Part shown: piece by piece, positions 9,993-47,164 of the stretch
Layout: every line of letters starts with the position of its first letter
Position numbering within the stretch: position 1 is the first letter of the stretch
DNA from: Fidelibacterota bacterium
GTDB taxonomy: Bacteria > Fidelibacterota > UBA2242
DNA: 47,164 bases
Assembly (NCBI GenBank): GCA_021161185.1
Contig: JAGHBC010000011.1
Coordinates: forward strand, 1 to 47,164
Direction: 5' to 3'
Program-made: the position numbers and the translations under genes
The notes under the pieces: generated by a model
Seen by the model: only the letters and a program-made list of their open reading frames with translations
Told to the model about the DNA's origin: nothing
Database searches by the model: none

Positions 9993-10205
9993 AAATATTA
10001 ATATTTAGGAGTATATATTGAAGGAAAATTTGACTAAAAAACCACCCAAATACTTTACAATTGATGTTTCCTCGAAATGCTATCTAAAATATGCTTTTTT
10101 TGCAAGAAAGAAGACACTAAACTCTCAGCCCGATCAAAATATGTCTTTAAAGATTTTATGTTTATTGCTGAGTCTATAGATATTGAACAGAAAGATAAAA
10201 AAATA

Positions 10206-10982
10206 ATGCCGATAATAAAGAGAATATTTCTGTTATTAATATTATTAATTGCTCTTAATAATTGTGACTCTCTATTGAATAATGATATGTTAGAGGCCAA
10301 AGGTGGGGTGTGTTTAACTTTTGATGATGTGTATGTTAATGAATGGTATAAATTGTCTGATTTATTGAGATTAAATGACTTCAAGGCAACATTTTTTATA
10401 TCAAAAATTTATTCTCTTTCATCATCTGAAATTCACAATCTCAGAAAGCTGGGTTCTCTCGGTTTTGAAATCGGTTGTCATGGGTGGAACCATATAGATG
10501 CTGCTGATTATCTCACACATCACTCCTTATCTGAATATTACAACGTTGAAATTTTACCGGCTTTGAACTTTATGAATGAGAATAATCCTTCCCCGACCTC
10601 TTTTGCTTATCCCGGAGGAATGCATAACGATTCATTAGACCAGTATTTACTTCAAAAATTCCAAATTCTTAGATGTGTAACCATGGAACAGGTAAAACCC
10701 CTTACTAAGAATGTAGAAGAGATTAATGAAATTTTTATTAAGAAAAACAAATCACAAATAGTAGCCGGTCTTGGTATTGATAAACAATTTAAAATTAGCG
10801 AAGACATGCTTTATATTGCACTTGAAAGAGCAAGTGAAAATGGTGAAATTATAATTTTATATGCTCATTGTCCCGTTGATTCAAATGCACAACATTATCA
10901 GATAAATAAGTCTTATATAGAAAATTTAATTTTGAAGTGTGAGGAATTAAATTTAAAGTCATATAGGATGTCAGAAATTTAA
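10206..10982 (+). CDS. Polysaccharide deacetylase (NodB-homology, CE4-like), probable lipoprotein
   Basis: NodB-type motifs are present: the aspartate pair in CLTFDDVY and the histidines in GCHGWNH. Starting at the ATG at 10206 gives MPIIKRIFLLLILLIALNNC, a signal peptide with a lipobox-like Cys. The gene is markedly AT-rich relative to its neighbours. Confidence 0.7.
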   Translation: MPIIKRIFLLLILLIALNNCDSLLNNDMLEAKGGVCLTFDDVYVNEWYKLSDLLRLNDFKATFFISKIYSLSSSEIHNLRKLGSLGFEIGCHGWNHIDAADYLTHHSLSEYYNVEILPALNFMNENNPSPTSFAYPGGMHNDSLDQYLLQKFQILRCVTMEQVKPLTKNVEEINEIFIKKNKSQIVAGLGIDKQFKISEDMLYIALERASENGEIIILYAHCPVDSNAQHYQINKSYIENLILKCEELNLKSYRMSEI

Positions 10983-11009
10983 AAAATTTCGACTCAAGAT
11001 TTTATACTT

Positions 11010-37373: not shown

Positions 37374-40034
37374 TTGGCAGTTCAATTAGATAAGGTTTAT
37401 GATCCCAATAAAGTCGAATCACGTTGGTATTCCCATTGGCTGGAAAAAGGCTATTTCCACGCCGATAATCAAACCAATAAGAAATCCTATACCATTGTCA
37501 TTCCGCCGCCAAATGTGACGGGAATATTAACAATGGGACATGTTCTGAATAACACCCTTCAGGATATTTTAGTCCGTTATGCCCGGATGAGCGGCTACGA
37601 AACCCTCTGGCTACCGGGTACTGATCACGCCGGGATCGCGACCCAAAATGTTGTTGAAAAAGAGCTTCGCAAAAAAGGCAAAACCCGCCATGATTTTGAG
37701 CGGGATGAATTTGTTGACATTGTCTGGGATTGGGCTAATAAACATAAATCTATCATATTAAACCAGTTGCGCAAAATCGGCAGCTCCTGCGACTGGGAGC
37801 GAGAGCGTTTTACTCTTGATGACGGGCTTTCCCTGGCTGTGCGTCAGGTATTTGTGCATTTGTATAAAAAGGGGCTGATTTACCGGGGGCGCAAGATTAT
37901 CAACTGGTGTCCTGTTTCCCAAACCGCACTTTCCGATGAAGAGGTTATTTATAAAGAAACTCCGGGACATCTGTGGTATTTTCGTTATCCCCTCGAAGAT
38001 GGAGCGGGATATTTAACAGTCGCTACGACTCGCCCGGAAACCATGCTGGGCGATACGGGTGTTGCCGTTAATCCCAAAGACGAACGCTTCGCTCACCTGA
38101 TTGGCAAAAATGTCGTTTTACCAATAATGGACAGGGTAATTCCGATTGTAGCCGATGATTTTGTGGATATAGAATTCGGAACCGGCGCGGTGAAAGTTAC
38201 TCCAGCTCACGACCCTAACGATTTTGAAATTGGCGAGCGCTACGGTCTGGAAAAGATCAACATCATGAATCCCGACGGCACAATGAATGCTGCCGCGGGA
38301 CCATTAGTGGCGGGCAAAGGCCGCTTTGAGGCGCGCAAGTTGGTTGTCGCCGAAATGGAACGCCTTGGTTTTCTTGAAAAAATTGAAGACTATACACATA
38401 GCGTCGGCTATAGTGAGCGAGCCGGTGTGATGATCGAACCCTATCTTTCCGAACAGTGGTTTGTTAAGATGAAGCCTCTCGCGGAGCCGGCTATCAGAGC
38501 GGTTGAAGAAGGAAAAATAAAATTTCACCCTGCCAGATGGGTTAAAACATACTACCATTGGATGAATAATATCCGGGATTGGTGTATTTCCCGGCAACTT
38601 TGGTGGGGGCATCGAATTCCGGTGTTTTACTGTACCGATTGTGACTGGATGGATGCGCTGCTGGAAGATCCCGCCCAATGTCCGCGATGCGGCGCTCAGG
38701 TGTTGCAGGAAAACGACGTGCTGGATACCTGGTTTAGCTCCTGGCTATGGCCCTTTTCGACCATGGGCTGGCCCGAAAAAACGGACGACTTGAAAGCCTT
38801 TTTCCCCACGGATACTCTCGTAACAGGACCGGATATTATCTTTTTCTGGGTGGCTCGTATGATCATGGCGAGTCTGGAATTTATGGACGACATTCCCTTT
38901 AAGGACGTTTACTTCACCGGAATTATCCGGGATATCAAAGGTCGCAAGATGAGCAAGTCTCTGGGTAACTCTCCCGATCCTCTCGTTCTCGTTGACAAAT
39001 ACGGCGCCGATGCGTTGCGCTACGGTATGATGCTGATTGCGCCCCAGGGGCAGGACATCCTTTTTTCCGAAGAAAGGCTCGAGGTCGGTCGAAATTTTAT
39101 GAACAAGGTCTGGAATGCTTCCCGGTTTATCCTGATGAACCTGGATGATGATTCCATTCTCGAAGAGGAATTTGTACCCGCAGATATAGAGTTAACTCTT
39201 GCCGACAAATGGATTCTGATTCGGTTGAAAACAGCCTTAGCAAAAGTGGAAAGTAGTTTAAAACGGTACCGCTTTGATGAAATCGCCCGCACGATCTATG
39301 ATTTTATGTGGAGTGATTACTGTGACTGGTACATCGAATTAATCAAAGATCGCCTGTATAAAAAATCCCCGGCGGAAAAACGCACTGCGCTATCGGTAGC
39401 AATTTATGTTTTAAAAAACACCCTAAAAGTTTTGCACCCTTATGCGCCATTTATTACCGAGGAAATATATCAGCATCTGAAAACAAAATCCGAACCGGAC
39501 ATTGTAGTTTCCGATTGGCCGAGAATTCGCTACCATAGCGACGATCCGACTGTTGAAGAAACCTTTGAAGTAATTCAGGAAATGATCACAGCCCTCAGGA
39601 CCGCACGCAGCGAAATGAATATCCCGCCGTCCGCCCAATTAAATTTAATTGTGCAGGGGGATGACGAGCAGTTGCCACTTAAATTAATTCAAAATGAATC
39701 TCTGGCAGAATATGTTAAAAATCTTGCAAAAGTTGCCGATATTCGCATCGTCCGGGACGGGGTAAGACCTCATCCGGCGTCGACGATTGTTGTTCATGGG
39801 ACAGAATTTTTCATTCCCCTGGAAGGGTTAATCGATGTAGCGGCTGAGAGACAGCGGCTAGAAAAGGAAATAAATCGCTTAAAAGGTCTTCTGAAATCAC
39901 TTTCTGTAAAACTGACGAATCAGAACTTCCTGGAAAAGGCGCCCAAAGATGTTGTCACCCGGGAAAAGGAGAAAGAACAACGTAACCGGAAGCAGCTGAA
40001 GAAGTTAGAAGCCAACCTGAAGGCTCTCATATAA
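37374..40034 (+). CDS. valS: Valine--tRNA ligase
   Basis: It shows PPPNVTGILTMGH (HIGH-class), KMSKSLGN and a C-terminal coiled-coil. The TTG start lies 6 nt after AAGAGG. Confidence 0.95.
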   Translation: MAVQLDKVYDPNKVESRWYSHWLEKGYFHADNQTNKKSYTIVIPPPNVTGILTMGHVLNNTLQDILVRYARMSGYETLWLPGTDHAGIATQNVVEKELRKKGKTRHDFERDEFVDIVWDWANKHKSIILNQLRKIGSSCDWERERFTLDDGLSLAVRQVFVHLYKKGLIYRGRKIINWCPVSQTALSDEEVIYKETPGHLWYFRYPLEDGAGYLTVATTRPETMLGDTGVAVNPKDERFAHLIGKNVVLPIMDRVIPIVADDFVDIEFGTGAVKVTPAHDPNDFEIGERYGLEKINIMNPDGTMNAAAGPLVAGKGRFEARKLVVAEMERLGFLEKIEDYTHSVGYSERAGVMIEPYLSEQWFVKMKPLAEPAIRAVEEGKIKFHPARWVKTYYHWMNNIRDWCISRQLWWGHRIPVFYCTDCDWMDALLEDPAQCPRCGAQVLQENDVLDTWFSSWLWPFSTMGWPEKTDDLKAFFPTDTLVTGPDIIFFWVARMIMASLEFMDDIPFKDVYFTGIIRDIKGRKMSKSLGNSPDPLVLVDKYGADALRYGMMLIAPQGQDILFSEERLEVGRNFMNKVWNASRFILMNLDDDSILEEEFVPADIELTLADKWILIRLKTALAKVESSLKRYRFDEIARTIYDFMWSDYCDWYIELIKDRLYKKSPAEKRTALSVAIYVLKNTLKVLHPYAPFITEEIYQHLKTKSEPDIVVSDWPRIRYHSDDPTVEETFEVIQEMITALRTARSEMNIPPSAQLNLIVQGDDEQLPLKLIQNESLAEYVKNLAKVADIRIVRDGVRPHPASTIVVHGTEFFIPLEGLIDVAAERQRLEKEINRLKGLLKSLSVKLTNQNFLEKAPKDVVTREKEKEQRNRKQLKKLEANLKALI

Positions 40035-40289
40035 AAGAGGTAAACATAAATTCGAAAACCTGCCTTTTAGGAAAAGGAAACCGTGAGTCATTATTAATGT
40101 TATTGCTTTTGTTTAATCGTAGAAGAAATAAGGATGGGAAAAATACAATCCCAACAAGTCGAAACAGACATATAACGGAGATTAAACAAAATATTTCTTT
40201 TTTTATTTTGCAGGGATTTTAATCATATATCTAAGGAGAAAATGTTTTAAAATAGAAGCAAACCTTCCAACTTATAAATAGCGGTTAAT

Positions 40290-42962
40290 ATGACTAAAGA
40301 GCAAAAATTTTATAAAGCACTTCAGGATGTTTTTATCGGTGCAAAAATCGAAGGTGAAGGCGGTTTTATCAATTTAATGCGAATAAAATCCGGCTATTAT
40401 TCGCAGATAGAAAAACTGCTCAAAGGCGATACTGAAAAAGCGCTGGAAAAATATCCCAAATTCAGGGAAGAGCTTTTTGACAAGCTGTATTATTTTTTCA
40501 GCCGTTACTTCACTGAAAGCGGATCCATTTATTTTAATTCCACCCCTTTCCATAACAACATTTACGAAAAAGTTTATACGGACGAAAAAGATGTCATTCT
40601 TTTTTGGAAAACGCAGATGCTCTACTATGTCAAAACCGACCGGATTTTTCGCTCCATGCCGGTAGAATTTGATGGTTTTAGGTTTTATTTTGACGCTTCA
40701 AATATTGAAAATAAGAAAGCCAACGAAAAACGCGCGCTTGTTTTTGAATTAAAGCAAGTCAGTGAAGATCCGCCTGCGCCAGGGCTTCGGCGGGCAGACG
40801 GGATAATTGATTTTACTGTGACATATTCTGAAAAAGGGCGCAAGACTAAAACAGACGAGATATTAAAAGCGCTAAAGAAGAACGGCGTCGCAATAAAAGA
40901 AGAAGAACTGGAAAAGGCTTTTCGCGTTTTTGGCAAGCAGTCTGAAGTGGACTTTTTCATAAATAAAAACGCCAAAGCATTTTTACAAGAGCAATTTAAA
41001 CTCTGGAGTTATCAATACTTTTGGGATGGAGCCAAAGAATGGTCTTCCGAAAGAGTGGATCAATTGCAAATTCTCAAAGATATTGCGTTTAAAATAATTG
41101 ATTTCATCTCCCAGTTCGAAGATGAGCTGGTAAAAATCTGGAATAAGCCTAAGTTTGTGAGAAACAGCAATTATGTGATTACGCTGGACAGGATTCTTTC
41201 CGCCTGTCATTCTGAGCGAAGCGAAAAATCTTATAAAGTTATTGAAAAAATACTTAAAGATCGAGGCATAAAAGAGCAGATAAAAGAGTGGCAAGAGCTC
41301 GGAATAGTTGATGACAAATTCAAAGTTGAAGATATTTTTGAAACCGATTTAACGGGAACGCATTTATCTAAAAAGTATGAGCATCTGCCGATTGACACAA
41401 AATATTTTAAGGATTTAGAACTTGAAATATTGGCGTTGTTTGATGATCTGGATAATCAATTGGACGGCTGGCTGATCAAAAGCGAAAATTATCAGGCGTT
41501 AAATACGATTCTGCCGAAGTTTAAAGAACGAATTAAGTGTATTCATATTGATCCACCGTATAACACAGAGACGAGTGGATTTTTGTATGTAAATACATAT
41601 CAGCATTCGAGCTGGCTAACCATGATGGAGAATCGAATACGAATAGGTTTTGAGCTAATATCACGTGACGGATCGTTCTTGTGTCACATTGACGAAAATG
41701 AATATGAACACCTACAACTGCTTTTTGAGCAATTTTCAGTCGCTAATGCCGGGACTGTCGTGTGGGATAAACGAAATCCGATGAATGCAGGCAGGGGTGT
41801 TGCCACACAGCACGAGTATATTATTTGGCGCTCAAGACAAGAAACGCCGATTTACTTACGGAATGATAGTATTCTTTTGATGTTAAAGGCGGCGGAAAAA
41901 ATAGTGCAAAAAAATGGCGGTGTAACAGAAAAAGCACAAAAAGAATATGCAGCATGGGTAAGTAGCAACCCGGAATTGACGGGTGGCGAAAAGGCATATC
42001 GCTTTTTGGATGAACAGGGACGCATTTATCAAAGTGTCAGTTTAAGAGCTCCCGAACCGCGAGTCGATCCAAAGTTTCACAAGCCTCTTATACACCCCGT
42101 TACAGGAAAGCCCTGCCCTGTTCCACCTAACGGCTTTTCACGTACTCCCGAAACACTTCAAAGAATGATGAAAAGAGGCGAGATTATGTTTGGAGAAGAT
42201 GAAACTATCCAACCTCGCCAAAAAGTCCAATTAACCGTGGAAACTAAAAGACAGATCTCTTCTGTAATTCAGGATGCCCGAAAGGGTAAGGCGGATCTTG
42301 ATCCGTTAGGGCTTGATTTTCCTTATTGCCACCCAGTTTCCCTATATGGAAAGCTTATTGGCGCTGCGAGCGCATCAACTGATGATATTGTGCTCGATTT
42401 CTTTGCCGGCAGTGGTACGACTGCACAAGCTGTTATAAATTTAAATCGCAAGGACGGCAAGAAGCGCAAATATATCTTAGTAGAAATGGGAAATTATTTT
42501 AATAACACAATTATACCTCGTGTAAAAAAGGTTGTTTTTAGCGACAATTGGAAAAATGGAAGAGCATACGAAGGAAAAGGTATTGGTCACTTTCTTAAAT
42601 ACTACGAGCTTGAGCAATATGAAGAAGCGCTGGCAAACTGCAAATATAAAGATGGGGATTTGTTTAGTGTTCCGGGAAAATCGCCTTATCAGGAATATGT
42701 CTTTATGAAAGACGAGAAGATGCTAAAGGCATTGGAAATTGATTATGAGAATAATAAAGTGACTGTGGATTTGGCGAAGCTATATCCGAATCTCTCGGCT
42801 CCGCTCGGGACAAGCATCGATATTGCCGAGACTTTGTCAAATCTTAGCGGAAAGTGGATCAAGCGGATTTCAGACTATGAAGTGGAATTTATTGACGGGA
42901 CCAGGATAAACACAAAAGAATTGGATTATAAACTTATTAAGCCGTTAATTTGGTGGGAGTAA
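40290..42962 (+). CDS. DNA methyltransferase, beta-class (N6-adenine/N4-cytosine family, Type III Mod-like) with ~400-aa unassigned N-terminal region
   Basis: The catalytic motif IV IHIDPPYN (DPPY at 41550-41561, aa 421-424) precedes the SAM motif I DFFAGSGTT (about 42399-42419, aa about 704-710). This IV-TRD-I order is that of beta-class and Type III Mod enzymes. I recognise no nuclease motif. Confidence 0.8.
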   Translation: MTKEQKFYKALQDVFIGAKIEGEGGFINLMRIKSGYYSQIEKLLKGDTEKALEKYPKFREELFDKLYYFFSRYFTESGSIYFNSTPFHNNIYEKVYTDEKDVILFWKTQMLYYVKTDRIFRSMPVEFDGFRFYFDASNIENKKANEKRALVFELKQVSEDPPAPGLRRADGIIDFTVTYSEKGRKTKTDEILKALKKNGVAIKEEELEKAFRVFGKQSEVDFFINKNAKAFLQEQFKLWSYQYFWDGAKEWSSERVDQLQILKDIAFKIIDFISQFEDELVKIWNKPKFVRNSNYVITLDRILSACHSERSEKSYKVIEKILKDRGIKEQIKEWQELGIVDDKFKVEDIFETDLTGTHLSKKYEHLPIDTKYFKDLELEILALFDDLDNQLDGWLIKSENYQALNTILPKFKERIKCIHIDPPYNTETSGFLYVNTYQHSSWLTMMENRIRIGFELISRDGSFLCHIDENEYEHLQLLFEQFSVANAGTVVWDKRNPMNAGRGVATQHEYIIWRSRQETPIYLRNDSILLMLKAAEKIVQKNGGVTEKAQKEYAAWVSSNPELTGGEKAYRFLDEQGRIYQSVSLRAPEPRVDPKFHKPLIHPVTGKPCPVPPNGFSRTPETLQRMMKRGEIMFGEDETIQPRQKVQLTVETKRQISSVIQDARKGKADLDPLGLDFPYCHPVSLYGKLIGAASASTDDIVLDFFAGSGTTAQAVINLNRKDGKKRKYILVEMGNYFNNTIIPRVKKVVFSDNWKNGRAYEGKGIGHFLKYYELEQYEEALANCKYKDGDLFSVPGKSPYQEYVFMKDEKMLKALEIDYENNKVTVDLAKLYPNLSAPLGTSIDIAETLSNLSGKWIKRISDYEVEFIDGTRINTKELDYKLIKPLIWWE

Positions 42963-42981
42963 ATTAAAAAGAGGTAGAAAA

Positions 42982-45672
42982 ATGAGCAATAAAAAATTAA
43001 ATAATTTATTCTCTGATGGCGCAAATTGGATAAAAGCAGATTTTCATTTGCACTCACCATTGGTCCATTCATTTACTTTGCCATCAGGGATTAATCTTAC
43101 TTCGCCAGATGCTTTAGAGCAACTTGCAGAAGATTATGTTGCTAAACTGAAAGAAACGCAAATTGAAATAGCGGCAATAACTGACTACCAGCAAATCCGT
43201 AAAGAATGGTTTGAATTGCTTCAAAAGGAAGCAGAAAAAGAAGATATTTTTATATTCCCCGGTATAGAACTTTCAATTAGTTATGGTAAGGGATTGCATA
43301 TACTTCTCATTTTCGATTATTATGAAAATATTGATGGAATAAATGACTACATAAAATCACTTGATAAAGAACCTCACAAATCATTACTAAATGCTGACCG
43401 AAGTCATAGAGATATTACTCTTCAAAAAGATTTGGCTGAAGTATTAAACGACATAAAAAGTACATTTCGGACTTTTATCATTTTTCCACATCCTGAAGAT
43501 AAAAACGGGCTTATTAAAGAATTTCAGCCCAAAGAAGCAGCCCAATTAATTAAACTGGCAGATGCAATAGAATATATAAGCGATGAAAGCAAAAACAAGA
43601 TCAATTCAACTGGAATAATCAATAATTCCTGGTGGGAAAATTTTTCCATCTTAGAAAACAGTGACCCCAAAAGCATTGATGAGATAGGTTGTAAAAAAAG
43701 AGGTGATAAGACAAGATGCACGTTCCTGAAACTAAGCAGCGTTTCTGTAAATGCTTTTAAAATTGCTTTACACGATCCGTCATTGCGGATAAGCATTTAT
43801 ACAAAGCCTGATTTTAAAAAAGATCGCATCGTATCAGTAAAAGTTGAAGGAAATGGATTCCTGAAAGATGTAGATATTAAATTCAACAAGGATTTAAACA
43901 CACTTATTGGCGGAAGAGGAGTTGGGAAATCAGCAATTGTAGAAACCATAAGATATTGTTTAGATCTTCCGGTTTACTCCGAAAAAAGTTTCAGAGAAGA
44001 CTTTGTAAAAAGTGTAGTGGGCAGCGGGGGTAAAATAGAGCTTAGCGTAGAAAGAGTTTTTGGTGACACACAACATTGCTATAAGATTAAAAGAATTATT
44101 GGTCAATTACCTGAAGTAGAGGATAGAGATATTCCACCCTTAGAACTATTCGAGGAAAAAACTCCTTTATTACTTGGGCAAAAAGAATTGTATGCACTGT
44201 CATTAGACGATATGTTTCAGCTTTCATTGATTGATGAATTAATCGGGGATGAAATAAAAAAAGAATCTAATGAATTCAAAAAATTACTTTTAAAATTAGA
44301 AGAAAATGCAACGCACCTTTTACAACTGCAGAGAAAAATAAATCAAAAAGAAGAAATTGAACAAAAGATAAAAACTATCAATGAGCACATCAAAACCTTT
44401 CAGGAACTTGGCGTAGTAGAAAAAATGGCGAAGCACACTGCTTTGATAGAAGACGATAAAAGTATTAATCGTTTTTACAAAGAATTCAAAAAGCAGATCG
44501 AAGAACTAAAAGAAAAATTTGAAGAATCTGTAAGTGTCTTAAAAAGTGAAGTTAATTTACTAAGTAATGGCAAAAGCATTGAAAAAAGTATTCTTGCCGA
44601 AGCTTCATGTTTGTTATCAGAGTTTAATTCTTATCTTGAAAATTTGAAAAATGATTTCACTCAAAAAACAAAAAAATATATAGACGAGTTTAATTTAATA
44701 ATAAACAAATGGCAGGAAAGCAAGAAAACATACGAAACCGAAATTAATGAAATAAAAAAAGAATTATCAGCGAAAGGATTAGCCCCAGATAGATATGAAG
44801 CACTTATCAAAGAGAAAGCTGGGTTAGAACCGTTATTGAAAGAATATGAAAAAATAAATGAACAAATTGAAGATTTACAAAAGGAGCGGGAAAAAATAAA
44901 ATCAGCGATTAAAGAAAAACGGCATCAGTTATTTACCGTAAGAAAAAATAAGATAGAAGAATTAAACAATAAATTAGTTGGCAGAATTCAGATGGAAGTG
45001 CTTTATCTTGCCAACCAAAGCGAATTTAGAGAATCTTTTAAAAATCTATTAAGCGGTTCCGGAGTTTCCAGAGATGCTATAGATAACATCATTGAGGGAG
45101 AAAAAGTCAACATAGATGGAATTGAATTATCCAGAGCAATTGCTGAAGGTATTGAAAAAATAAAGGAATTATTTAGCCTTACTGATGCGATGGCTAGTAG
45201 AACAATAAACTGGTTCAGTGAAAAAGAAAAATTATATGATCTGGAAAGGATTTTTCCAGATGATAAAATTGTAATCAAATTAAAAGTTGGTGATAGTTAT
45301 AGCGAACTATCCAAACTCTCTGTCGGCCAAAAAGCCACTGCTTTATTGATACTTTTATTTGCACAAGATGACCGAATATTGATTATTGATCAGCCGGAAG
45401 AAGATTTAGATAACAGGTTTATATATGAAGATGTTGTGAAAATATTAAGAGAAATTAAAAATAAAAGACAGATAATTTTAGTGACTCATAATGCCAACAT
45501 ACCTGTCTTAGGAGATGCAGATCAGACTATCGTTTTAGATGCATCAAGCGAAACCTGCAGAATAGTTGATTATGGTTCTATTGATAAAAAAATTATTACA
45601 GATAATATTAAATCTATAATGGAAGGTGGCGAAGAAGCCTTCAGTCGTAGAATAGAAAAATATGGAGTATAA
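42982..45672 (+). CDS. PHP-domain phosphoesterase fused to an SMC/Rad50-like ABC ATPase (PplA-like architecture)
   Basis: The N-terminus ADFHLHS (HxH, aa 22-24), AITDYQ, PGIELS and GLHILLIF form a PHP-like motif series. Walker A GGRGVGKS lies at 43909-43932 (aa 310-317). A K/E-rich coiled-coil of about 250-300 aa follows. The ABC signature-like LSVGQK (45316-45333), Walker B ILIIDQPEEDLD and H-loop VTHNANI complete the ATPase head. Confidence 0.75.
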   Translation: MSNKKLNNLFSDGANWIKADFHLHSPLVHSFTLPSGINLTSPDALEQLAEDYVAKLKETQIEIAAITDYQQIRKEWFELLQKEAEKEDIFIFPGIELSISYGKGLHILLIFDYYENIDGINDYIKSLDKEPHKSLLNADRSHRDITLQKDLAEVLNDIKSTFRTFIIFPHPEDKNGLIKEFQPKEAAQLIKLADAIEYISDESKNKINSTGIINNSWWENFSILENSDPKSIDEIGCKKRGDKTRCTFLKLSSVSVNAFKIALHDPSLRISIYTKPDFKKDRIVSVKVEGNGFLKDVDIKFNKDLNTLIGGRGVGKSAIVETIRYCLDLPVYSEKSFREDFVKSVVGSGGKIELSVERVFGDTQHCYKIKRIIGQLPEVEDRDIPPLELFEEKTPLLLGQKELYALSLDDMFQLSLIDELIGDEIKKESNEFKKLLLKLEENATHLLQLQRKINQKEEIEQKIKTINEHIKTFQELGVVEKMAKHTALIEDDKSINRFYKEFKKQIEELKEKFEESVSVLKSEVNLLSNGKSIEKSILAEASCLLSEFNSYLENLKNDFTQKTKKYIDEFNLIINKWQESKKTYETEINEIKKELSAKGLAPDRYEALIKEKAGLEPLLKEYEKINEQIEDLQKEREKIKSAIKEKRHQLFTVRKNKIEELNNKLVGRIQMEVLYLANQSEFRESFKNLLSGSGVSRDAIDNIIEGEKVNIDGIELSRAIAEGIEKIKELFSLTDAMASRTINWFSEKEKLYDLERIFPDDKIVIKLKVGDSYSELSKLSVGQKATALLILLFAQDDRILIIDQPEEDLDNRFIYEDVVKILREIKNKRQIILVTHNANIPVLGDADQTIVLDASSETCRIVDYGSIDKKIITDNIKSIMEGGEEAFSRRIEKYGV

Positions 45673-45674
45673 CT

Positions 45675-46826
45675 ATGAATGAATTGGAAATAAAAGAATT
45701 GATAGCCCGCGGAGAAGGTTATCATTTGAAGTTCAAGGAAGAAAACATATCTAACGAAGATTTAGCAAAAATATTGGTTTGCTTTGCCAATACCGATGGA
45801 GGAAAAATTCTCGTTGGAGTGGATGACAATGGGATTATTAAAGGGATAAGTGAATCTGACAGGATTATGTTAAGAATTGATGATATAGCCATCAATCGCT
45901 GTGAACCGCCTGTTACTATTTTGCAGGAGACAGCACTTGTGGATGATAAGACCATTCTCATTGTAAATGTGCCCAAGGGTAGTCAGCGTCCGTACAGAAC
46001 AAAAAGAGGTAATTATTATGTAAGATCATCCAATCGGTGTCGCCAGGCTTCCAGAGAAGAGTTGCTAAGAATATTTCAAGCATCAGAAAGTCTTTATTAT
46101 GATGAATTACCTGTTAGGCGTTCTGGTATGTCTGATTTGGACATTAACCGATTTAAAATTTTCTTAAAGGATTCACTTAACGTTAGTGTTAATAATAATG
46201 AAATTAAGAATTATCTTATAAATTTTCATTTGACAGCAATTGATAACACTCCTACCGTTACAGGGATTTTATTTTTTGGTGAAGCACCTCAGAAATTTTT
46301 GCCCGAGGCAAGGATTATATGCGCTTTTATCAATGGCAATGACTTATCCATACCTCCCGATGATAAAAAAGAAATTTCTGGCACTATACCCCAAATGGTA
46401 GATGACACAGAAAGATTTTTAAAAATCTACCTGAAAGAAAAGCACGAGATAAAGACTTTTGAGCCTGAAATAAAATTTGAAATTCCCCTTGAATCTCTGA
46501 GAGAAGCTGTATTTAATGCCATAGCACACAGAGATTATACAATTAACGCACCGATTAGAATTATAATTTTTTCGGATAGAATAGAAGTCCATAGTCCGGG
46601 CAAACTTCCTAATACAGTTACAATAGACAGTATTAAAATAGGAGGTTCTCATGTTCTTAGAAATCCAAGCATATATAATATCTTGGTTAAAATGGGCAAA
46701 GTAACCGATTTAGGAAGTGGAGTTAGAAGAATTATTAGATTGATACAGGAACACATTAAAAAAGAGGTTGACTTCAAAGAAACCGACAGTGAGTTTATTT
46801 TGATAATACCAAGAAAAAATAATTAG
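45675..46826 (+). CDS. AlbA_2 (Schlafen-type divergent AAA) domain protein with C-terminal HATPase_c_4-like domain
   Basis: The N-terminus ELIARGEGYHLKFKEE...LAKILVCFANTDGGKILVGVDDNGIIKGI is the classic AlbA_2 pattern. The C-terminus REAVFNAIAHRDY...IRIIIFSDRIEVHSPGKLP matches the HATPase_c_4 pattern. It starts 2 nt after the upstream stop. Confidence 0.75.
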   Translation: MNELEIKELIARGEGYHLKFKEENISNEDLAKILVCFANTDGGKILVGVDDNGIIKGISESDRIMLRIDDIAINRCEPPVTILQETALVDDKTILIVNVPKGSQRPYRTKRGNYYVRSSNRCRQASREELLRIFQASESLYYDELPVRRSGMSDLDINRFKIFLKDSLNVSVNNNEIKNYLINFHLTAIDNTPTVTGILFFGEAPQKFLPEARIICAFINGNDLSIPPDDKKEISGTIPQMVDDTERFLKIYLKEKHEIKTFEPEIKFEIPLESLREAVFNAIAHRDYTINAPIRIIIFSDRIEVHSPGKLPNTVTIDSIKIGGSHVLRNPSIYNILVKMGKVTDLGSGVRRIIRLIQEHIKKEVDFKETDSEFILIIPRKNN

Positions 46827-46864
46827 TAAATAAAATGTAATGAAATCTTCAATTTAGTAGTAAT

Positions 46865-47164
46865 ATGCGACTTTACTTACAAAACATCGTAGGCGATATT
46901 TCTTTCGATAGCCTACCTCCCAAATGGCAGAGTTTTGATCTGGCAAAATTTTCTCAAGACAAGATACTTTTTGATTTTCTAAAACAGGGGCTGCAAAATG
47001 CGTTAAAAGGGCTTTGGTTTTATTACATAGAGAAAAAAGGCCAAAAAGAATCTCTTTTTGAGCATTATCGGGCAAACGGGTATGCAGAAGATTTTGACTA
47101 TGATCTGGAAAAGAAAAAAGACGGTAAAACAATAAAATATATTTTAGAATACGATCAGGATTAT
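46865..47164 (+). CDS. Hypothetical protein, 5' partial (runs off the window); possible helicase/restriction partner of the cassette
   Basis: Exactly 100 stop-free codons run from the ATG at 46865 to the window end in an AT-rich stretch (MRLYLQNIVGDISFDSLPPKWQSF...FDFLKQGLQNALKGLWFYY...). The ORF is absent from the supplied track, presumably because it has no stop. No clear SD was seen, and the functional guess is weak. Confidence 0.5.
   Translation, partial: MRLYLQNIVGDISFDSLPPKWQSFDLAKFSQDKILFDFLKQGLQNALKGLWFYYIEKKGQKESLFEHYRANGYAEDFDYDLEKKKDGKTIKYILEYDQDY

Follow-up and report, generated by a model that had tools for sequence, protein, structure and literature searches.

The 47,164-nucleotide (nt) stretch of DNA analysed here (the window; contig JAGHBC010000011.1 of assembly GCA_021161185.1, from a Fidelibacterota bacterium) carries near its end a forward-strand open reading frame (ORF) of 896 amino acids (aa), at 42982..45672, which had been singled out from the sequence as a PHP phosphoesterase fused to a Rad50/SbcC-like coiled-coil ATPase. 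This ORF belongs to the TrlF family, which shares its architecture with the anti-phage protein Ppl as a sister group, and is not itself a Ppl. The ORF lies second in a Type III-like restriction-modification (R-M) operon with the order Mod-TrlF-TrlG-Res, in which TrlF and its partner TrlG are nested between the methylase and the restriction genes. We consider it probable that TrlF, a fusion of a PHP nuclease-type domain and an SMC-like ATPase, acts with TrlG in a defence that is gated by nucleoside triphosphates (NTPs) and coupled to R-M. The analysis shows the architecture, the family, the link to TrlG and the nesting; enzymatic activity, a role in defence and coupling to restriction are predictions, for which Ppl and the SMC-like defence ATPases serve as homologous models.

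Family membership was decided with curated models. NCBIfam NF045780 (“TrlF family AAA-like ATPase”) scored 489.6 bits against a cutoff of 350 and aligned aa 13-895 of the ORF with positions 2-944 of its 944. The Ppl model NF042955 (Ppl_antiphage) reached 222.2 bits against a cutoff of 1000 and thus failed, and the PADLOC Ppl model scored 162.7 bits, its best stretch being aa 13-677. An annotated Ppl from an E. coli plasmid aligned by BLASTP over aa 13-893 with 21% identity (E = 1e-33). TrlF and Ppl are regarded as sister families because they share this full-length identity and one architecture and because the Ppl cutoff was failed. The original prediction had described Ppl correctly as a PHP-plus-ATPase protein, as the full-length alignment shows, but its suggestion that the ORF might belong to that family was not borne out. 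The same holds for its alternative, that the fusion itself would be new if the ORF were not Ppl: the ORF passes the TrlF model, RefSeq annotates hundreds of plasmid copies, and the fusion of PHP and SMC-like parts is already known and named, as Ppl and as TrlF, and is not a new kind of protein. Among other models, PADLOC LmuB gave 43 bits (aa 282-839 aligned with positions 4-587 of the 611 in the profile), and the NCBIfam models for Rad50 (26-28 bits), SbcC (19.5 bits) and RecN (28.6 bits) stayed far below cutoffs of 408-1000. Assignment to MADS was rejected, the PADLOC mad3 match covering only aa 602-857, a part of the C-terminal region, and MADS being defined by MAD6-8. The candidates Hma, PDC-M49 and PDC-S06 likewise gave only partial C-terminal PADLOC matches.

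The N-terminal domain (aa ~13-275; 43018..43806, forward strand) has the PHP phosphoesterase/nuclease fold that had been proposed for it. A fold search was needed for this call, since the Pfam PHP model scored 18.2 bits on the ORF, below its threshold of 26.4, although it passed in 14 of 19 homologues. When aa 1-280 were modelled separately with AlphaFold2 (pLDDT 90.1), all 24 Foldseek matches in the PDB with E<1e-3 were PHP structures, among them RNase AM (7ug9, 5e-8), PolC, Pol III alpha and BAD_1165, and also 3f2b, 3o0f and 3e0d, with TM scores of 0.41-0.51 on the query. A profile of the domain matched the PHP protein TM0559 (E = 1e-3). The PHP-side motifs read DFH22LH24, AAITD68Y, PGIE96L, GLH106IL, FPH170PE and NSD228PK, and the conserved residues of the domain are D20, H22, H24, D68, E96, H106, H170 and D228. 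With metal ligands assigned by motif, two canonical histidine positions are occupied otherwise in the clade of the window protein: Y69 stands for the His of motif II (TDY) and K230 for the final His (SDPK). At these two motifs Ppl has SDH and SDAHH, and gammaproteobacterial TrlFs have TNH and SD(P/A)K.

The rest of the protein is an ABC/SMC-type head split by a coiled coil. The N-lobe (aa ~282-420; 43825..44241, forward strand) contains the Walker A motif (G310-S317, LIGGRGVGK316S) and the Q-loop (LGQ400K); it was recognised by Pfam SMC_N and AAA_23 and, with Foldseek, as resembling SMC, Rad50 and RecN heads. The C-lobe (aa 669-896; 44986..45669, forward strand), matched by Pfam AAA_21 and ABC_tran, holds the signature LSVGQK784, the Walker B/D-loop ILIID803QPEEDLD810 and the H-loop TH836NANI. 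Every PHP and ATPase motif listed in the original prediction was found in its place in the ORF, and the cited residues do not vary among 34 aligned homologues that are 47-90% identical; most are also kept in distant TrlFs and in E. coli Ppl. The K/E-rich segment said to split the head is an antiparallel coiled coil of ~240 aa (423-664; 44248..44973, forward strand), as judged by AlphaFold2 secondary structure, by composition (K+E 35%, vs 18% in the remainder of the protein) and by Foldseek alignment to 5xei, with a turn at aa 529-534 and a break at aa 598-601.

A full-length AlphaFold2 model built from the 34-homologue alignment (pLDDT 86.4, pTM 0.68) shows an alpha/beta domain that ends near aa 275, the head N-lobe at 282-420, long helices at 423-664 and the C-lobe at 669-896. 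Its top Foldseek match in the PDB was 5xei (E = 1e-10), the head of an SMC protein together with coiled coil, and further matches were condensin, JetC, MukB, Rad50, RecN, RecF and the Lamassu structure 9uxh. By sequence, the full protein gave only weak ABC-transporter matches among PDB chains, and no Ppl or TrlF structure was found there. AlphaFold2 and Foldseek thus find a PHP fold at the N-terminus and a coiled coil at the centre, the two points on which the architecture had been staked beforehand. The label “Rad50/SbcC-like” stands in part: the head is of the SMC/Rad50 type, but the whole protein lacks a CxxC that could form a zinc hook (aa 423-664 contain a single cysteine, C543), a hinge was sought in the coiled coil and none was found, and “SMC/Rad50/RecN/LmuB-like” is the better description.

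One residue of the head bears on its mode of action. Q804 follows the Walker B aspartate D803 (45388-45393) and aligns with the catalytic glutamate of EcfA, and the motif DQPE(E/D)DLD, with Gln at the catalytic-Glu position, is invariant in TrlF, distant members included, and in Ppl. In ABC and SMC enzymology, a Gln after the Walker B Asp is the natural counterpart of the classic E-to-Q mutation that blocks hydrolysis. This suggests that the TrlF head may be an NTP-binding sensor with slow or absent hydrolysis and not a motor. As a separate observation, the C-lobe contains a conserved all-helical insert (aa ~680-755; 45019-45246), placed after the coiled coil has come back to the head and before the signature motif, with G692-S693, D712-G713 and W744-F745 conserved. 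Taken alone, the insert matched no known family or fold; it might serve to bind DNA or a partner.

The operon begins with Mod (40290..42962, forward strand), which encodes a Type III-like N6/N4 DNA methyltransferase of 890 aa with DPPY and FAGSG motifs (Pfam N6_N4_Mtase, 3.9e-31; PADLOC MTase_III PDLC03638, 725.7 bits). TrlF starts 19 nt past the Mod stop codon and is followed, on the same strand, by a TrlG-like gene of 383 codons after 2 nt (45675..46826; Schlafen/AlbA_2 and GHKL-type HATPase_c_4 domains by Pfam) and, after a further 38 nt, by the 5′ end of a Res-like helicase-nuclease gene (46865..47164), which is cut by the window end after 100 codons. Because TrlG and the start of Res were found downstream, the locus reads as Mod-TrlF-TrlG-Res, nested in an R-M operon. 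On the forward strand no terminator-like sites were found in 39800-47164, and a promoter scan was uninformative (23 sites, vs 24 expected by chance). Neither 40035-40289 nor the gaps between the operon genes hold any ORF of at least 60 aa, and so none for a helix-turn-helix (HTH) protein of the TrlR/RptR type, and the operon contains no gene for a calcineurin-like nuclease.

The Res assignment was made by phmmer, in which the 100 residues matched the N-termini of the proteins that follow TrlG in two related loci (L007, E = 5e-37; L001, E = 1e-29). These homologues of ~1000 aa carry Pfam ResIII/DEAD/SWI2_SNF2 domains and score 79-89 bits with PADLOC REase_III. When the C-terminal halves of the L007, L001 and L086 Res proteins were compared with Pfam, an endonuclease domain was not detected, and the L007 protein had no match in the PDB by sequence. 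The full-length Res proteins of L007, L001 and L005 end in KPDFIFW...(V/I)DPKGTE, a motif of the PD-(D/E)xK type, and that of L012 carries Pfam RE_endonuc.

TrlG of the window (Pfam PF04326, 1.3e-24; PF13749, 2.3e-19) has the architecture and size of Photorhabdus TrlG, and its GHKL ATPase domain carries the conserved N-box ExxxNAxxHRDY. The Schlafen motif Ex4DxK appears in it as E14-x4-K19-x-K21, which departs from the canonical form. Codon 19 (45729-45731) is AAG for Lys, while the 91%-identical TrlG of L086 and those of L007, L001 and L002 have Glu (GAG or GAA), the difference from L086 (E19K) being a single G-to-A change. Many distant TrlGs have Gln at this position (E-x4-Q-x-K). Prokaryotic Schlafens are anti-phage tRNases in which Slfn-HisKinase is the commonest architecture and Ex4DxK the catalytic motif (PMC13056530); PHP, SMC or R-M partners are not mentioned in the Nature Microbiology Schlafen paper. 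According to the passages of PMC7554251 on the “temperature restriction locus” trlR-trlF-trlG of Photorhabdus laumondii, temperature-induced growth arrest depends on trlG, and the suppressors of this arrest all fell in trlG and none in the larger trlF gene. Photorhabdus genetics thus point to TrlG as the growth-arresting component. Judged by its position in the motif, the second acidic one, K19 may have inactivated a toxic gene, much as the suppressors did in Photorhabdus; the Gln in many distant TrlGs makes this less certain.

The family is large. Of the candidates that were scored in a word-indexed search, 282 were homologous at E<=1e-5, the full-length ones with up to 90% identity, and 1330 representatives of 50%-identity clusters matched at E<=1e-30, so the observation made on the TrlF ORF goes far beyond chance. 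Members occur in many bacterial phyla, in archaea, on plasmids and in a few phages, and 333 plasmid records were matched with at least 80% coverage, mostly annotated in RefSeq as “TrlF family AAA-like ATPase”. The nearest relative (P0001, in locus L086) is 90% identical, a homologue from Candidatus Humimicrobiaceae (P0004) is 86% identical and that of L007, from Atribacteria, 56%; the window clade is ~27-30% identical to gammaproteobacterial TrlFs. The assembly index had no entry identical to the window protein. Phage or phage-like records with a TrlF-family gene are OR848124.1, OR846775.1, NC_070913.1 and PQ189346.1. The Listeria “phages” LM 4-14-1 and 4-11-1 carry a near-full-length TrlF identical to a Listeria plasmid copy, and near-full-length TrlFs are also found in Yersinia phage vB_YenM_42.18 (annotated as “chromosome partition protein”) and in a Vibrio element.

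Gene neighbourhoods were surveyed in 80 loci, with one genome per species, and 73 of these had enough flanking sequence for TrlG to be counted. In 56 of these (77%) the next gene after TrlF on its strand was TrlG, overlapping the TrlF stop codon in 42 of the 56, and 17 loci had no adjacent TrlG. Neighbours were labelled by iterative hidden Markov models, an incomplete labelling that was supplemented by counting Pfam and PADLOC matches among the neighbours. Immediately upstream (n = 53) were an N6_N4 methyltransferase in 11 cases, HsdS in 4 and a small HTH gene in about 6; an HTH regulator at the operon head is thus no universal trait of the family. The genes after TrlG or TrlF (n = 48) included 17 with ResIII and 5 with HSDR_N. 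In the nearest relatives (L086, L007, L001, L005 and L012) TrlF likewise comes after this Mod gene, and L086 has the gene order of the window. Mod-TrlF-TrlG-Res nesting was also found in L001, L005, L007, L008 and L012, and hsdM-(hsdS)-TrlF-TrlG-hsdR nesting in L045, L063, L071 and L072; in the Type I contexts HsdR is complete with its own nuclease domain. Other neighbours in the survey were Gabija GajA, Hma, PLD-SNF2 helicases, DISARM/BREX helicases and AbiL. A bare TrlF-TrlG pair is present on a Pseudomonas plasmid, where RefSeq names TrlG “RNA-binding domain-containing protein”.

Related operons are often decayed. Res is truncated before the PD...DPK motif in L086 (6733-9021). Mod is a 186-aa fragment in L002 (7435-7995) and is split in L001 (4839-7958), one piece carrying DUF559; TrlG is broken into two ORFs in L005 (10710-11854), and TrlF is split in L017, L019 and L042. 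Such frequent decay suggests a cost to carrying intact systems.

In the window the GC content falls from ~0.44 to ~0.33 (0.30-0.40) directly after valS (37374-40034), and the whole operon block (40035-47164) is AT-rich. The Mod-TrlF-TrlG-Res block looks like a horizontally acquired island beside valS, with its far end beyond the window. Elsewhere in the window, a GC minimum of 0.30 at 10001-11000 lies over an ORF of 301 aa (10077-10982), in surroundings of ~0.43 GC with nearly all genes on the forward strand.

The window pair resembles Photorhabdus TrlF/TrlG in that the curated family model is passed from end to end and a gene of the same size with AlbA_2 and HATPase_c_4 domains follows. It differs in its setting: the Photorhabdus locus is headed by TrlR and flanked by polA/dsbA, and the window pair stands between a Type III Mod and Res with no TrlR/RptR gene. 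The PHP motif II also differs, TNH in gammaproteobacterial TrlFs vs TDY in the window clade. In a 2025 study of Type I systems in four gammaproteobacteria (PMC12255303), a pair annotated as an RNA-binding protein and an AAA-like ATPase is noted in passing downstream of RptR, between hsdS and hsdR, in four genomes; the passage gives no function for it. That pair shares with the window pair the annotation names, the arrangement and the nesting between modification or specificity and restriction genes; its host system is of Type I with RptR present, in contrast to the Type III-like system of the window, which has no RptR. We infer from annotation and architecture that the RptR-regulated pair is TrlG/TrlF. 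TrlR, a protein of 79 aa, heads trlR-trlF-trlG (PMC7554251), and RptR, a repressor of 79 aa, lies upstream of its own pair (PMC12255303); from these passages, the two look like one regulator family that was described independently. The passages concerned in the two papers contain no cross-reference between the systems. The embedding beside a methyltransferase that the original prediction had offered as the new aspect is real and recurrent; its Type I form had already been mentioned in PMC12255303, and TrlG and Res had been overlooked. We found no report in the literature of TrlF/TrlG nested in Type III systems.

Ppl shares with TrlF the end-to-end arrangement of PHP and coiled-coil ABC parts, the H-x-H, E, H, H and D ligands, and the Walker A, Q-loop, signature, DQPE(E/D)DLD and H-loop motifs. 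Ppl stands alone (the E. coli plasmid copy is without such neighbours) and keeps SDH and SDAHH, whereas TrlF is paired with TrlG and has SDPK. LmuB of Lamassu aligns with the whole ATPase part at its low PADLOC score, and 9uxh is among the Foldseek matches, but Lamassu has a separate LmuA effector and LmuC and no PHP domain; JetC and the GajA/OLD class are grouped with LmuB as SMC-like defence ATPases that resemble TrlF. The Mre11-Rad50/SbcCD complex likewise joins a nuclease to an ABC head with a long antiparallel coiled coil, and Rad50 was matched by Foldseek. Its nuclease is calcineurin-like and separate, while TrlF has PHP in cis, no zinc hook and a DQ Walker B. The picture of an Mre11-Rad50 analogue in one chain, drawn in the original prediction, would be a reasonable analogy. 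PrrC, of the EcoprrI Type Ic R-M locus, and RloC are ABC-ATPase-regulated anticodon nucleases linked to Type I R-M. With these TrlF/TrlG shares an ABC-type NTP-binding regulator and an RNA- or DNA-targeting effector nested between hsdS and hsdR, and RloC also has a Rad50-like coiled coil; the Schlafen-type partner of TrlF suggests a possible tRNA-directed arm. No sequence relationship to PrrC or RloC was detected, and the TrlF/TrlG effector would be split, with PHP in cis and Schlafen/GHKL in trans. Both are named among ABC-ATPase defences in the “embedded defences” preprint of Payne et al., where Ppl is mentioned only as an ABC ATPase.

A working mechanism can be proposed on the model of Ppl, which a review (PMC12904381) describes as a 3′-5′ PHP exonuclease on single-stranded DNA that needs 3′-OH ends and is inhibited by NTPs bound to both of its domains. 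The TrlF heads would bind NTP, the Walker B DQ favouring binding or sensing with slow or no hydrolysis, and the coiled coil would hold DNA or sense DNA ends. The NTP- or DNA-bound state would gate the PHP domain, which would degrade DNA from free ends, and TrlG, with its Schlafen domain and GHKL ATPase, would work with TrlF as a growth-arresting effector or a co-sensor. The host R-M system would create the ends by acting on invader DNA that is unmethylated, or the trigger would be a failure of that system, as in the logic of PrrC and EcoprrI. We propose functional coupling to restriction because two R-M types that are unrelated both have the pair nested between their M and R genes. A more specific form, in which TrlF-TrlG is a dedicated second layer wired to the host R-M system, Type I or III, as a split, DNA-end-driven guard like PrrC/RloC, is put forward tentatively, and we hold it to be possible but doubtful. 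A hydrolysis-impaired, NTP-sensing head would then detect restriction-made DNA ends, or the failure or inhibition of restriction; this would license the PHP exonuclease to destroy the DNA of the invader, while cell arrest would fall to the Schlafen/GHKL partner, licensed in the same way. If this were true, an R-M-wired TrlF-TrlG layer would be widespread across bacteria and archaea.

Several points weigh against an R-M-coupled, NTP-gated defence. Res of the window is known from its first 300 nt, where the window ends, and Res of the closest relative L086 is truncated ahead of the nuclease motif. TrlF occurs solo on Listeria, E. coli and Citrobacter plasmids and also beside non-R-M genes, so R-M coupling is not obligatory. 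Residues at the active sites raise doubts as well: with two canonical PHP histidines replaced in the window clade catalysis is not assured and the substrate could differ, with Q804 in place of the catalytic Glu the head may not hydrolyse ATP, and with Lys or Gln at the second acidic place TrlG may not be a canonical nuclease. Since trlF yielded no suppressors in Photorhabdus, TrlG may be toxic without the help of TrlF, or TrlF may hold that toxicity in check. In the literature we found no defence assay for TrlF or TrlFG.

The solo plasmid copies and the 17 loci without adjacent TrlG would suit a TrlF that is a self-sufficient single-gene exonuclease defence of the Ppl type, with TrlG, Mod and Res as unrelated neighbours in a defence island, as would the architecture and full-length homology shared with Ppl. 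This is unlikely, given the failed Ppl cutoff, the adjoining TrlG in 77% of loci, mostly overlapping the TrlF stop codon, the M(/S)-TrlF-TrlG-R order kept across two R-M types and many phyla, and the lack of an internal terminator. The only experimental phenotype known for the family, the trlG-dependent growth arrest described in the passages of PMC7554251, could instead mark TrlF/TrlG as a growth-control or addiction module of toxin-like kind, serving island stabilisation or growth arrest under stress and not defence against phages. The split or pseudogenised copies (TrlG in L005; TrlF in L017, L019 and L042) and the E19K change in the window TrlG would fit a costly toxic module. Growth arrest, however, is also a hallmark of abortive-infection defences, the neighbours are overwhelmingly defence genes (R-M, Gabija, Hma, DISARM/BREX helicases and AbiL), and both Ppl and the prokaryotic Schlafens, which are the nearest relatives with a known function, act against phages; we therefore regard such a module as improbable.

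Two further readings fare worse. TrlF might be an accessory nuclease subunit of the R-M enzyme that supplies or extends cleavage for the Res helicase: it lies between Mod and Res in one operon, Pfam finds no endonuclease in the C-terminal halves of three Res proteins, and one of them, that of L086, is truncated. The full-length Res proteins of L007, L001 and L005 have the PD-(D/E)xK-type motif and L012 Res has RE_endonuc, the HsdR of Type I contexts is complete with a nuclease domain, and TrlF is also found without R-M genes, all of which makes this very unlikely. That TrlF is a housekeeping machine for double-strand-break repair, an SbcCD/Mre11-Rad50 analogue with a PHP nuclease, is hardly credible. 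Its head and coiled coil do resemble Rad50, RecN and SMC structurally, and RefSeq attaches a Gene Ontology term for double-strand break repair to one TrlF copy; yet the Rad50, SbcC and RecN models scored only 20-29 bits where 400-1000 would be required, a zinc hook is lacking, and the family has a patchy distribution on islands and plasmids and is linked to defence genes, not repair genes.

TrlF/TrlG is a large and almost uncharacterised family that recurs in two R-M types of different mechanism, each time with the modification gene on one side and the restriction gene on the other. Its conserved nesting in Type III as well as Type I operons, so far documented only in part, leads to a testable hypothesis, namely that the pair forms an R-M-coupled backup layer that senses DNA ends or NTPs. 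The pair also links three threads of the literature, the temperature restriction locus of Photorhabdus, the RptR-regulated pair and Ppl. If coupling to R-M were demonstrated, TrlF/TrlG would be a notable addition to the biology of layered defence.

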